IMG/VR virus record: IMGVR_UViG_3300027571_000063
Coordinates: 1-26,533 of that record
Reading direction: 5' to 3' (one strand)
Length of the DNA stretch: 26,533 nucleotides
Origin: a virus
Lineage: Duplodnaviria > Caudoviricetes
Shown: positions 18,976 through 24,694 of the stretch, piece after piece
How the letters are laid out: every line of letters begins with the position of its first letter
How positions within the stretch are numbered: the first letter of the stretch is position 1
The notes under the pieces: generated by a model
What the model saw: the letters and a program-made list of their open reading frames with translations, nothing else
What the model was told of the DNA's origin: nothing
The model's database searches: none
Made by a program: the position numbers and the translations under genes

Positions 18976-19452
18976 ATGACCCAGACCCCCGATAGTATTA
19001 GAGCAAAAGTTAACTGGAAATTAAAAACATACAGTACTGGATACCGTACTGATCATGTAGCCGTTATATGGCTACTTTCATATACACCAAAAGTTTTGCC
19101 CAATGGTGAATACACTGGAATGATTATGGATCATTCACTAAAGCGTAATGTTGTAGTGTTTAGTATGGATCCTGACGATATAGATTTCTATAATGATTAT
19201 ACTATTATCTGGATTAACCCTGAACTACTAGTTAAGACAGATGGGGTTAAACTGAATGTTGGACGCAAGGCCAGCAACAAAGCACGACTAACTGATGTGC
19301 TGGATGATTTTGAAAGAGTTATAGGTTTACCTGACCTCAGTGACAATAAACGAGCAAAAATGTTAAATGTCAGTGAAACAAAATTTAAGAGTTGGTGTAC
19401 GCAATATAATGAATTGTTTCCAGAAAAACTTCTTGACAGGGAACTTCACTGA
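18976..19452 (+). CDS. Hypothetical protein (158 aa)
   Basis: GAGG RBS; exact TATAAATA at 18920-18927 upstream; no recognised family. Confidence 0.7.
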   Translation: MTQTPDSIRAKVNWKLKTYSTGYRTDHVAVIWLLSYTPKVLPNGEYTGMIMDHSLKRNVVVFSMDPDDIDFYNDYTIIWINPELLVKTDGVKLNVGRKASNKARLTDVLDDFERVIGLPDLSDNKRAKMLNVSETKFKSWCTQYNELFPEKLLDRELH

Positions 19453-19463
19453 TACTATAAATA
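19433..19463 (+). promoter_or_regulatory. Sigma70-type promoter whose -10 is an exact TATAAATA
   Basis: TTGACA(19433)-17 nt-TATAAATA(19456). Confidence 0.75.
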
Positions 19464-19468
19464 ATATT

Positions 19469-19658
19469 GTTAACGGAATTGCTAGTTTTTCTGTTAACCC
19501 GTAGATGAAGTATTAACTATGATTACAAGCCGTTATCTAGTTTTCTCCTTATTTTAAGGTAACTTAAACCGCGCATCTTATGCCCTAGAGTCATCTACAT
19601 CTTTTGTGAAGTTGTTTACACAGCGGGGCTCCAGGTTTTCTCATTACCTGGAGCCTTT
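19469..19658 (+). ncRNA. Putative structured sRNA 1 (~190 nt)
   Basis: Follows the promoter and has no RBS-led ORF. Stems 19469-78/19489-98, 19501-08/19591-98 and 19536-40/19585-89, a GTAA-tetraloop hairpin and a terminal hairpin 19627-19655. Confidence 0.55.
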
Positions 19659-19662
19659 ACTC

Positions 19663-19691
19663 TTGACAAAGCGGATTAAATATTGTATAAC
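19663..19691 (+). promoter_or_regulatory. Sigma70-type promoter
   Basis: TTGACA-17 nt-TATAAC, with TAAATA in the spacer (19677-19682). Confidence 0.7.
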
Positions 19692-19697
19692 AATCAT

Positions 19698-19810
19698 ATG
19701 CACAGTTAGGCTGCGCATTCTCCATGAGATACAGGTTTCTTATTCATTCCCAGTATCTCACAACTTAGTCACGAGTGTGACAGCCCTGGCGAATGCCGGG
19801 GCTTTTTTTT
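19698..19810 (+). ncRNA. Putative sRNA 2 (~110 nt, four hairpins)
   Basis: Stems 19698-705/19711-18, 19725-32/19753-60 and 19768-72/19777-81, then a canonical terminator. Confidence 0.6.
19782..19810 (+). terminator. Rho-independent terminator
   Basis: AGCCCTGGC-gaat-GCCGGGGC followed by T8. Confidence 0.85.
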
Positions 19811-19818
19811 CACTGAGT

Positions 19819-19834
19819 GTTGCAGATCTGCAAC
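19819..19834. promoter_or_regulatory. Perfect 16-bp palindrome, candidate operator
   Basis: GTTGCAGATCTGCAAC about 20 bp upstream of the 19854 -35 box. Confidence 0.4.
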
Positions 19835-19853
19835 GGAAATCCGGTTTTCTAGG

Positions 19854-19883
19854 TTGACAAAGTATACACATATGTTATAAATA
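19854..19883 (+). promoter_or_regulatory. Sigma70-type promoter (copy 1 of a 27-bp duplicated promoter)
   Basis: TTGACA-16 nt-TATAAATA with a TG extended -10; 19854-19880 is identical to 20598-20624. Confidence 0.8.
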
Positions 19884-19922
19884 TAGATGTAACAGATGGT
19901 TACGCTACAAAGGAAAAAGACA

Positions 19923-20102: not shown

Positions 20103-20593
20103 ATATCTTCAAGATTAAAGAACATGCTATGGATCCGCAAACCACACGCAGTGGTAAAATTAAAACGGATAGCAATGGCGAACCACTACGCAGTGTGCAA
20201 CTATTACAAAGTCCAGAACAACGCCGCGAGATGGCTAAAATCCTAAACAACATGCCACGCATTTATGATGAATGCCCAGAACTATTCCCCACAGGTAAGC
20301 ATCACATTGGCAATGATCCCACAAGTTATACTGTTGCTGATATGATGGCTGACTGCAAAACCCGTATGCCACGCTGGAGCAGTGCAATGAGTGGTGCCCA
20401 CATTTACCGCAGTTTTGTTGAACGCCACAACTGGTGCTTGGATCGACTGATTGAGGGCTTGTATGCTGCTGGATTGGAAGACGAGATTATGAATGTTGAG
20501 CGTGACTACCGCATTAAACTACGCCTACCAAAGCATGAAGAAATCAGCCGCGCTCTTAAAAAGAGTGATATCTTTGATCTATACAGTGAATAA
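20099..20593 (+). CDS. Hypothetical protein (164 aa)
   Basis: GAGGAG RBS; no recognised family. Confidence 0.75.
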   Translation: MNIFKIKEHAMDPQTTRSGKIKTDSNGEPLRSVQLLQSPEQRREMAKILNNMPRIYDECPELFPTGKHHIGNDPTSYTVADMMADCKTRMPRWSSAMSGAHIYRSFVERHNWCLDRLIEGLYAAGLEDEIMNVERDYRIKLRLPKHEEISRALKKSDIFDLYSE

Positions 20594-20597
20594 AATC

Positions 20598-20631
20598 TTG
20601 ACAAAGTATACACATATGTTATAAGTAAATA
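20598..20631 (+). promoter_or_regulatory. Sigma70-type promoter (copy 2) followed by TAAATA
   Basis: TTGACAAAGTATACACATATGTTATAA identical to 19854-19880; TAAATA at 20626-20631. Confidence 0.8.
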
Positions 20632-20641
20632 GTGAGCAGGA

Positions 20642-20750
20642 AGGTTGACCTTTAACCTAGATTTCACCTAGTATGATCCGCACTAGGCTGCACAAGCGGA
20701 TCACACACTGAACTGAAATCCAGTGTCTAAACAAAACTAGAGGTTCCAAA
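20642..20750 (+). promoter_or_regulatory. Structured 5' leader with a predicted double pseudoknot
   Basis: Four perfect Watson-Crick stems of 7, 6, 8 and 6 bp in crossed order within 67 nt (20660-20726). Confidence 0.6.
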
Positions 20751-22097
20751 ATGAAGATAAGTGTTGATAGTCGTAGATGTGGTGCTGGCAAGACTGCTGG
20801 CATTGGTGGTATTTTTGACCGTATCCAATTACACACACAACGAAATGAGAGCGTGTTGGTAACTGTTCCCAGCATTAAACTAATTGAACAGTATTATAAA
20901 CAATTCCCTGATGCCACTGTTATTACAAGTGAGACAGTGGACAATGTTCAAGCACACCTGCATAACGCATTTAACAATGGTGCTGAACTAATCATTATTA
21001 CACATAAAGCATTCCTTGAAAGCCAGATCCTAAGTGGAACACGCGGCTTGTATAACTTGATTATTGACGAGGCTTTTGACCCCTGGCGTAGCCAAACATA
21101 TGAGCAATCAGCACTTGACATTAACTTTGACTGGAATGTCTTGCTTGCGGCAACTCCAGTAAATGATATTGAGGGCTGGAACACGCTGCATTTGAAACAC
21201 AATATCCGCACTAATACTATTAGCAATAGCAGCAACTTTGTTCGTGATATCTACAACACTAACTGGCGTATGTATATTAAGACTGAGCAATACGAAAGTT
21301 GGACTATGGATGGCACTCGTCGTGTTGAGTTTGTGCAGGAACTAGATCCAGGTATACTGAGTGGCTGGTGCAGTGTGCATGTTGCAGCCGCAGCATTTGA
21401 AAAGACATTCATGTATTGGTGGGTGCTGAAGCATGGCATTCATATCAAAGTCACTAAGCCATTTGAACCTCACACCACACAGATCACTATTCATTATCCA
21501 GAAGATGGACATGGCGGCACTACTTGGAGCAAATACAAGACACTGAATCAACCAGAGATCAAACAAACATTTCGTGATTATGTAAATGCTGTTGGTGCTC
21601 CACTACTGCGTCTAAAAAATAACAATGATTTTACTGTAATGAATAACAGCGAAGTTATCGGTCATAATGCAGCAGGTATCAATGGCAAAAGCCATTATGA
21701 GCATGTTGTTATGGAAAGCACACTTAATCCAACACCACTTATGGGTGAATGGCTTAAAATGCAAGCCAGCAATTACTTGCCAAGCACAACTCGAGCAGAT
21801 GTTGCACTATTTGAAGCCCGCACTGGTTATATCTTTTATCAAGTAGGTATGCGTTGCAGCCTGCGTGATGAGCGGCCAGCCCACTTCTATGTAATTGATA
21901 ATAGAGCAGTTATTGCCCTAACTTATTACTTTGATAATGTTAAAATGGCAGATATCCACTACAAGTCAGATAGAGGACCTGCCCCACTAACAGGAGCAGA
22001 AAAATCAAGGGCAAACAGAGCACTTAAAAAGAACCCAGAGAAGTATAAAGGGATGAAATACAGGGATATCTTAGATGACCTGCTACGCAAGTCATGA
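20751..22097 (+). CDS. SF2 helicase-like protein, putative replication initiator/origin-binding protein
   Basis: Walker A CGAGKT, motif Ia VPSIKLIEQ, Ib IITH, Walker B LIIDE, motif VI-like YQVGMRCSLR; basic C-terminus. The initiator role is inferred. Confidence 0.75.
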   Translation: MKISVDSRRCGAGKTAGIGGIFDRIQLHTQRNESVLVTVPSIKLIEQYYKQFPDATVITSETVDNVQAHLHNAFNNGAELIIITHKAFLESQILSGTRGLYNLIIDEAFDPWRSQTYEQSALDINFDWNVLLAATPVNDIEGWNTLHLKHNIRTNTISNSSNFVRDIYNTNWRMYIKTEQYESWTMDGTRRVEFVQELDPGILSGWCSVHVAAAAFEKTFMYWWVLKHGIHIKVTKPFEPHTTQITIHYPEDGHGGTTWSKYKTLNQPEIKQTFRDYVNAVGAPLLRLKNNNDFTVMNNSEVIGHNAAGINGKSHYEHVVMESTLNPTPLMGEWLKMQASNYLPSTTRADVALFEARTGYIFYQVGMRCSLRDERPAHFYVIDNRAVIALTYYFDNVKMADIHYKSDRGPAPLTGAEKSRANRALKKNPEKYKGMKYRDILDDLLRKS

Positions 22098-23684: not shown

Positions 23685-23823
23685 CTGTAACATTCTGTAA
23701 TCTTTTGTTACTAAGAAAAGTGAAAAAAACTTCAAAAAACTCTTGCTCTTTGGGTCAACACACACTATATTATAAGAGTAAGCAGAGAGGCTTACTTAAC
23801 AACACAGAAAGAGAGAAATAGAA
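23684..23823 (+). repeat. Cassette leader repeat 1: phased boxes, promoter, 5' stem-loop and RBS
   Basis: CTTGCT(23742)-17-CTATAT(23765); GTAAGC-agagag-GCTTAC hairpin; near-identical to 24155-24272 and similar to 24570-24694. Confidence 0.9.
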
Positions 23824-24103: not shown

Positions 24104-24150
24104 CCTAACATTTACAGTACTGGCCCAGCGATTGCTGGGCTTTTTTTGTA
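24104..24150 (+). terminator. Repeated Rho-independent terminator, copy 1
   Basis: CCTAACATTTACAGTACTG-GCCCAGC-gatt-GCTGGGC-T7; near-identical to 24520-24565. Confidence 0.88.
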
Positions 24151-24154
24151 TCAG

Positions 24155-24272
24155 ACTGTAACATTCTGTAATCTTTTGTTACTAAGAAACTTCAAAATAA
24201 CTCTTGCTCTTTGGTTCAACACACACTATATTATAAGAGTAAGCAGAGAGGCTTACATTAACACAGAAAGAG
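24155..24272 (+). repeat. Cassette leader repeat 2
   Basis: CTTGCT(24203)-17-CTATAT(24226); same boxes and leader hairpin as repeat 1. Confidence 0.9.
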
Positions 24273-24519: not shown

Positions 24520-24565
24520 CCTAACATTTACAATACTGGCCCAGCATTGCTGGGCTTTTTTTGTA
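24520..24565 (+). terminator. Repeated Rho-independent terminator, copy 2
   Basis: GCCCAGC-att-GCTGGGC-T7. Confidence 0.88.
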
Positions 24566-24569
24566 ACAA

Positions 24570-24694
24570 ACTGTAACATTTTGTTACTAAGAAAAGTGAA
24601 AAAAAGTAGTAATATGTCTTGATTTTCTTAGTAACACACACTATATTATAAAGGTAAGCGCGGTGCTTACAGCAACACAGAAACGGAGACACAG
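24570..24694 (+). repeat. Cassette leader repeat 3 (diverged)
   Basis: CTTGAT(24618)-17-CTATAT(24641); leader stem GTAAGC...GCTTAC retained with a different loop; GGAG RBS. Confidence 0.85.

Follow-up and report, generated by a model that had tools for sequence, protein, structure and literature searches.

A predicted double-pseudoknot leader, absent from Rfam, precedes the helicase-like gene of a small tailed phage

A short intergenic stretch ahead of a helicase-like gene in a marine tailed phage contains a set of complementary strands that a first-pass annotation had read as two interlocked RNA pseudoknots with a possible switch at the ribosome binding site (RBS). Is this a real structure, does it control the gene downstream, and what would it respond to? 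The window, by which we mean the whole stretch of DNA analyzed, is an entire virus record of 26,533 bases with a completeness of 99% (CheckV). Its open reading frames (ORFs) encode terminase, portal, scaffold, capsid, tail tube, tape measure, and tail proteins, and no match to an integrase, polymerase, primase, or SSB was found among the 35 ORFs scanned. We found that 19 of the 23 runs listed hold at least half of the window's words, and those runs are marine metagenomes, 14 of which may be where the DNA came from. The leader sits in a 157-nt gap between a 164-aa ORF, which has no assigned function and gave no usable match, and the 448-aa ORF at 20751-22097. One of three near-complete relatives annotated encodes an integrase (genome G017, L138:4786-5883), while the window is without one.

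The product of the 448-aa ORF matched phrog_2467, a family of unknown function, with an E value of 2e-28, and had weak matches to Pfam DEAD and ResIII that fell below the cut-off. It has 191 relatives at the 50%-identity cluster level, and its closest protein relatives are 89%, 62%, and 55% identical, the metagenome scan for their DNA having covered 53 of 64 parts; tblastn of the protein gave no match in the phage records, and no relative was found in genome_contigs. The AlphaFold model (pLDDT of 89.3) has XPD and DinG as its nearest solved structures, with an E value of 1e-8 and a TM score of about 0.5, is also nearest to phage proteins that are either named helicase or unnamed, and has Atlas neighbors that carry a YonV_C domain. 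Of the earlier label of helicase/initiator, the helicase-like part is supported by the predicted XPD/DinG-like fold, while we infer the initiator role because this is the only replication-type gene in the 26.5-kb tailed phage. In phage RB49, an unannotated member of the helicase family, RB49p044 (L102:2971-4440), lies directly upstream of the late sigma gene 55. This protein, carried by 59 phage records, is about 23% identical to the L074 protein described below and is a distant homolog of the window's helicase.

The features of the leader and its surroundings, in order along the plus strand, are as follows.

20598 to 20625 (+): predicted sigma-70-like promoter, TTGACA-16 nt-TATAAG, read from the bases
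20626 to 20631 (+): TAAATA, predicted promoter core like that of T4 late promoters
20642-48/20652-58 (+): hairpin E1, 7 bp with one G-U, -5.4 kcal/mol; predicted ON state, which would hide the anti-RBS strand
20647 to 20654 (+): anti-RBS strand, the 5' side of stem E3 (GACCTTTA), 8 bp with 20738-45, including two G-U pairs
20660-66/20714-20 (+): stem A, 7 bp, exact Watson-Crick
20667 to 20703 (+): H-type pseudoknot B/C, with B at 20667-72/20682-87 and C at 20674-81/20696-703, both exact
A20673 and 20688-95 (+): loops of B/C, a single A (loop 1) and 8 nt
20705-10/20721-26 (+): stem D, exact; its loop carries A' (20714-20), which makes the second crossing
20727 to 20737 (+): A-rich linker from D' to the RBS
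20738 to 20745 (+): Shine-Dalgarno region (GAGG), the 3' side of E3 (TAGAGGTT), ending 5 nt before the ATG at 20751
20751 to 22097 (+): gene for a 448-aa superfamily-2 helicase-like protein (phrog_2467, YonV-like); the regulated gene by position

The four perfect stems that had been described at this locus are all exact Watson-Crick complements. They total 27 bp, pair 54 of 67 nt, and follow the order A-B-C-B'-C'-D-A'-D', with B/C nested inside the A/D crossing just as the first-pass annotation had it. A descriptor of this topology, with four Watson-Crick stems of at least 5 bp each, matched once in the window when both strands were scanned, and it matched none of 5000 dinucleotide shuffles of the 123-nt leader and none of 87 shuffles of the whole window. 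When stems of 4 bp were allowed, 2 of 5000 leader shuffles matched, with at most 18 bp; a G-U-tolerant version of the descriptor was unspecific, with dozens of matches, and was dropped. Nested folding gave z values of -3.39 for the 78-nt core, -1.43 for the 129-nt leader, and -1.81 for the reverse strand, which are less striking because half of the helices cross and nested folding cannot show pseudoknots. Since stems A to D are all Watson-Crick, the pairing cannot tell RNA from single-stranded DNA, nor one strand from the other. Searches with Rfam 15 gave no match at the gathering score in the window, in agreement with the earlier statement that the element could not be matched to a known riboswitch or ribozyme, nor in L074, and a relaxed search of positions 20550 to 20800 gave only a chance snoRNA match (E = 7.6).

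Scans with the helicase protein, together with alignments, yielded 30 other distinct loci with enough upstream sequence, after duplicates, window copies, and low-flank fragments had been left out (L001, L059, L065, L066, L069-L071, L076-L078, L080, L089, L094, L097, L101, L105, L106, L109, and L111-L114). One of the 30, L074, whose helicase has 32% protein identity to that of the window, carries the same A-B-C-B'-C'-D-A'-D' topology at the same distance from promoter and RBS. The window's 27 pairs are represented in L074 by 16 identical and 8 compensatory pairs, with no one-sided change and 3 pairs lost, all at helix ends, so that 24 of 27 pairs are kept. By stem, these are 5 same, 1 compensatory, and 1 lost for A (the end pair lost is the window's first G-C pair), 5 same and 1 compensatory for B, 3 same, 3 compensatory, and 2 end pairs lost for C, and 3 same and 3 compensatory for D. 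This count is partly circular, because pairing was used to set the L074 registers of C and D; the independent control is the shuffle test, in which the descriptor matched 0 of 5000 shuffles of the L074 leader. The covariation that the first-pass annotation had proposed to look for among helicase leaders is found, as 8 compensatory and no one-sided changes, in a comparison of two independent examples only.

The two leaders share the invariant words TTTCA, CTAGT, ACTAG, and TGAAA, and L074 has a 9-nt A-rich linker at the corresponding place. The H-type form of B/C holds in the window, with its single-A loop 1 as earlier noted, but the single A is not conserved, since loop 1 of L074 is U or UCU. 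Stems C and D covary between the two leaders, but A, B, and the first part of loop 3 keep their sequence, a pattern that suggests a recognized surface or a triple helix in the predicted RNA. In a tree of the helicases, L074 groups with homologs that are without this leader, and the leader has therefore been lost or swapped repeatedly. We regard it as highly probable that the element is a functional structure of some kind, and we conclude from these sequence comparisons that the leader is a real RNA motif absent from Rfam, backed by two divergent examples and with a putative function.

In the fold that we propose, B/C would form a classical H-type pseudoknot and D with A a second, circularly permuted one in which A' and D' are one continuous strand. 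Since that strand is continuous, A and D could stack into 13 bp, with the D-to-A' link (3 nt; 1 nt in L074) as loop 1 and the A-rich linker as loop 3. This linker (20727-20737) probably runs along the minor groove of stem D. Stem E3 would close the break of the circularly permuted pseudoknot, B/C (14 bp) would bridge the far ends of the A/D stack, and the leader's 5' strand would be set beside the RBS.

No third copy of the leader was found in viral contigs, prokaryote genomes, or 58 further sources. When viral contigs were scanned for exact 14-mers, 57 stretches came up, with the fold in none but the window's own copy, and a pattern of shared words gave 3 viral stretches, namely the window's own copy and two without stems C and D. 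In 185,579 prokaryote genomes the same pattern gave 22 stretches, none with the fold at the match, and a model built from the two leaders recovered, in the 523 kb of the 58 sources, nothing beyond the two sequences used to build it. A blastn search of the leader against 50,697 phage records returned only short chance matches. In one RNA run, parts of the upstream gene were covered and the leader was not, and in DNA runs no leader variant was seen among the rows listed; contigs cannot show absence, so that these runs argue neither way. Searches of mostly open-access literature showed no paper on the leader, on YonV-like phage helicases, or on small phages with T4-like late promoters. The 224 motifs described in PMC5737381 could include a relative of the leader, and the other papers drawn on here are PMC535899, PMC3014915, PMC7892883, and PMC2984593.

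The proposed switch at the RBS would work by covering or freeing it. The first-pass annotation had proposed that AACCT at 20654-58 pairs with AGGTT either upstream or in the RBS. Both of these pairings are exact, but the register conserved between the two homologs is 20647-54 with 20738-45, not 20654-58, and the computed energies are -0.5 to -2.5 kcal/mol for the AACCT pairing versus -4.0 to -6.0 kcal/mol for E3. Six E3 pairs are common to the window and L074, of which 4 are the same, 1 changes from U-G to C-G, and 1 is compensatory. L074 has a weaker, bulged hairpin in the place of E1 (-3.2 kcal/mol versus -5.6 to -6.2 kcal/mol for its E3), and the gap between E1 and E3 is about 0.6 to 3 kcal/mol in window and L074, in energies that omit pseudoknots. 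With C and D enforced at 37°C, and pseudoknots again left out of the energies, the window favors E1 (0.72 versus 0.20 for E3) and L074 favors E3 (0.99). The anti-RBS duplex by itself is within chance, as 97 of 300 shuffles equal it in the window and 63 of 300 in L074, and what argues for E3 is the conserved position and predicted pairing. Both homologs can thus form an anti-RBS stem and a 5' hairpin that would compete with it, as a putative RBS switch would need, but the strength of the anti-RBS pairing alone does not argue for one. The 5' strand of B could also pair, weakly, with 20736-40 in both homologs. Control would act on translation, since U runs of 5 or more are absent from both leaders and no terminator was predicted in that of the window. 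An RNA thermometer was rejected, since warming increases the computed share of the RBS-covered state in both homologs, whereas a heat-on thermometer would free the RBS.

The promoter ahead of the leader was absent among the 21 sites of a consensus scan; L074 has a TTGACA at the matching place. It is followed in the window by a TAAATA, and this hexamer occurs 16 times on the plus strand and once on the minus strand, with 10 occurrences in the 9% of the window that is intergenic; genes that it precedes include those for portal, scaffold, and tape measure. For the T4 late promoter the sequence given is TATAAATA, and for that of cyanophage NATAAATA (PMC2984593). The core of this T4-type late -10-like element, TAAATA, is found upstream of 20 of 20 stand-alone helicase homologs versus 0 of 11 operon-internal ones, groups that were sorted by upstream coding sequence after the TAAATA tally had been seen; the next-best nonoverlapping hexamer of the same letters reaches 6 of the 20. 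The base before TAAATA, in the 19 loci tallied, is A in 10, C in 6, G in 2, and T in 1, and it is G in the window. Across a group of 25- to 36-kb phages (the window and L138-L157), TAAATA points into genes. We detected no gp55 in 20 of 20 records, 5 of which are at least 90% complete, while the positive control RB49 was detected; Sigma70_r2 and DNA polymerase A were not found in 5 of 5 near-complete records, nor gp32 and polymerase B in 4 of 4. TAAATA promoters in genomes where gp55, gp32, and DNA polymerase were not found make dependence on a T4-like helper possible.

The 30-nt promoter itself is duplicated, at 20598-20627 and 19854-19883 (29 of 30 nt identical), and, in further contigs of the same runs, immediately precedes a different gene. 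Two other noncoding regions of the window are of note. The 440-nt gap at 19452-19896 has several inverted repeats, two TTGACA/TAAATA sites, and a strong terminator at 19782-19803, and is a candidate origin or small RNA. A cassette of about 100 nt occurs in three copies (23686-23783, 24147-24244, and 24562-24659), each with a promoter-like ACACACACTATATTATAA, a small stem, and an RBS ahead of one small unknown gene, and near-identical terminators precede two of the three. By these signals, the region looks like a modular early-gene array.

Among the stand-alone homologs, 10 have long leaders (106 to 193 nt after TAAATA, the window and L074 included) and 10 have short ones (19 to 46 nt); in these 10 of 20 and in the 11 operon-internal cases, the gene does without such a leader. 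In 5 of the 10 long helicase leaders, no more than 4 of 300 shuffles attained the pseudoknot score of the leader itself, which was the case for none of the 13 other long leaders that follow TAAATA in these phages (Fisher P = 0.0075), a contrast of 3/8 versus 0/13 (P of about 0.04, calculated by hand) when the window and L074 are removed. A significant anti-RBS stem was present in 3 of 10 long helicase leaders and 2 of 13 others. The folds of the other long helicase leaders differ from that of the window, and Rfam gave no match in nine homologous-leader loci. Different knots on one gene family would fit a common protein ligand, most simply the gene's own product.

Several of these other leaders are structured in their own ways. 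The one at L062:1165-1272 has an anti-RBS stem that closes a stem and an H-type pseudoknot, with no stem D; this pseudoknot, whose 9-nt first loop is identical to that of B, is not significant alone (64/300), and the leader is possibly a simpler relative of that in the window. Those at L108:2850-2979, L110:2870-3000, and L115:2810-3003 have significant, different pseudoknots, none of them in Rfam; the pseudoknots of L108 and L110 lie within a long RBS-covering stem, and L107 resembles L110. The leaders at L061:2375-2491, L063:2335-2473, and L064:2300-2485 have, respectively, a three-way junction, a possible kissing-loop pair, and a 180-nt multi-stem fold (z of -6.4), and in the three-way junction a loop pairs with one of three Shine-Dalgarno copies.

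We compared the leader with known systems that combine pseudoknots and gene control. On ColIb-P9/IncI plasmids, an RNA pseudoknot governs translation of the replication gene repZ, a likeness to the arrangement seen here, and this system needs a translated leader peptide and an antisense RNA. A pseudoknot of this type was rejected, since none of the four ORFs of 5 to 12 codons in the window's leader is shared with L074; no antisense promoter was called near the leader in the window. HDV-like and theta ribozymes also have crossing P1 and P2 helices with room for an insertion, and a descriptor of their fold (P1-P2-P3-L3-P3'-P1'-P1.1-(P4)-J4/2-P2', with the catalytic C) had 0 matches in either homolog. 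A hammerhead was rejected because its CUGANGA/GAAA core calls for a CTGANGA that neither leader has, and a likeness of the A-rich linker to the tail of preQ1-I because there is no Rfam match and the likeness is not kept in L074. The Escherichia coli alpha-operon S4 and rpsO S15 operators are cases of autogenous translational control by pseudoknots with two competing folds, and the alpha operator is a nested double pseudoknot. In these operators the RBS or start codon is part of the knot, on which the 30S subunit becomes trapped. In contrast, the knot in the window's leader lies wholly upstream and would act through its closing stem, and there is no ribosomal-protein gene and no Rfam match. The rpsO pseudoknot is named in PMC3014915.

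The closest parallel is with the T-even gene 32 operator, which is likewise an H-type pseudoknot upstream of the RBS in the leader of a phage replication gene (PMC535899, PMC3014915). The T4 gene 32 pseudoknot has stems of 4 and 7 bp, a single-A loop 1, and a 5-nt loop 3, compared to 6 and 8 bp, a single A, and 8 nt in the window. The likeness drawn by the first-pass annotation is therefore real for the shape of B/C, but it extends no further. Here, a second pseudoknot encloses the first, a helix covers the RBS, and the gene encodes a helicase and not an SSB; no PF08804 (gp32) match was found in the window genome. Gene 32 also has an unstructured UUAAA tract of more than 40 nt, whereas the window has 27 nt from D' to the ATG with one TAAA, L074 two TAAA in 23 nt, and T4 five in 70 nt. 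Membership in the T-even gene 32 operators was rejected on the missing UUAAA tract and SSB gene and the added second knot, although by analogy the leader would work most like them. The leaders of T4 genes e, soc, 49, and I-TevI are alike in that an upstream strand covers the RBS and late promoters lie nearby, and their late transcripts start inside the 5' arm and so remove it (PMC3014915), unlike the window, where both predicted starts are upstream of E1 and E3.

The reading that we favor, at somewhat less than even odds (a probability of about 0.45), is that the leader acts as a translational operator whose most likely ligand is the helicase, which would thereby limit its own synthesis. The anti-RBS strand would choose between E1, with the RBS free (ON), and E3, with the RBS covered (OFF), and once there is more helicase than DNA substrate to occupy it, the surplus would bind the knot and either keep the RBS covered or obstruct the ribosome. 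This action is modeled on that of T4 gp32, which represses its own translation via a pseudoknot (PMC535899, PMC3014915). Against such an operator, the predicted fold of the helicase resembles DNA helicases, and its RNA binding is hypothetical; in addition, there are two independent examples only, and the anti-RBS duplex is beyond chance in no more than 3 of 10 long leaders.

The T4-like promoter cores lead to another reading, in which the late sigma factor and replication proteins of a T4-like phage are borrowed and a helper protein reads the leader, so that the helicase would be made only in co-infected cells. The obvious candidate would be gp32, whose own operator is a similar H-type pseudoknot matched in shape by B/C, and the strand bias of TAAATA (16 versus 1), its place before 20/20 stand-alone homologs, the lack of gp55, gp32, Sigma70_r2, and polymerase A/B matches in the records scanned, and the distant helicase homolog next to gene 55 in RB49 all fit with a helper. 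However, TTGACA is present in many of these promoters, which host sigma-70 might then serve unaided, TAAATA may belong to a divergent phage sigma factor or to an unknown one of the host, and the phage encodes its own head and tail. Small phages without a polymerase are common, and with the single-A loop lost in L074 and the long UUAAA-rich gene 32 tract missing, we think a helper sensor unlikely. A similarly low probability attaches to the wider proposal that the 25- to 36-kb tailed phages are parasites of T4-like phages, with their own virions and a borrowed late sigma factor and replisome, and that the leader serves as an RNA sensor by which a helper protein, for example gp32, turns on the one replication gene that the parasite has. 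It is also rather improbable that the knot is a fixed structure that dampens translation to a set level or shields the 5' end of the transcript; the weak anti-RBS signal, the dominance of the RBS-covered state in L074 at 37°C (0.99), and a compact fold covering most of the leader are what one would expect of it, but against it stand the constant sequence of A, B, and the start of loop 3 beside covarying stems C and D, and the competing 5' hairpin found in both homologs.

Riboswitches are typically compact pseudoknots with conserved cores and an RBS switch, and the four invariant words would suit a sensor of a metabolite or ion, for example a nucleotide, that ties helicase synthesis to the state of the host. 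Such a sensor is nevertheless quite unlikely, given no Rfam match in the window or the nine homologous-leader loci, no true copy among the 22 pattern matches in prokaryote genomes, and the restriction of the element to a single phage gene family, in which the other members have different folds. The leader might instead be part of a replication origin, as a folded R-loop primer RNA or as a single-stranded DNA structure for helicase loading: DinG-like enzymes act on R-loops, the element adjoins the only replication-type gene of a genome without a primase or polymerase match, and the all-Watson-Crick stems could form in DNA. Yet the place of the element relative to the RBS is conserved, as is the anti-RBS pairing, and the leader has neither iterons nor a break in GC skew, which makes an origin quite unlikely as well. 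A self-cleaving ribozyme, of a known or a new class, is the reading to which we give almost no weight. HDV-like and glmS ribozymes are nested double pseudoknots, and stem A has 7 bp and starts with G, as does HDV P1, but the leader has no room for P3/L3, P1.1, and J4/2, its D-A' link is 3 nt (1 nt in L074), the first G-C pair of A is lost in L074, and there is no Rfam match.

Should the T4-late-like promoters reflect reliance on a helper, co-infection would be sensed by the leader RNA, in a phage group that we have not found described in this way in the literature searched. Whatever its ligand, the leader is a 67-nt, covariation-supported candidate whose size suits it to probing and structure work, and by its position it would control an uncharacterized XPD/DinG-like helicase family of small phages and RB49. 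Since several relatives carry other knotted leaders on the same gene, the question of the ligand is directly testable.
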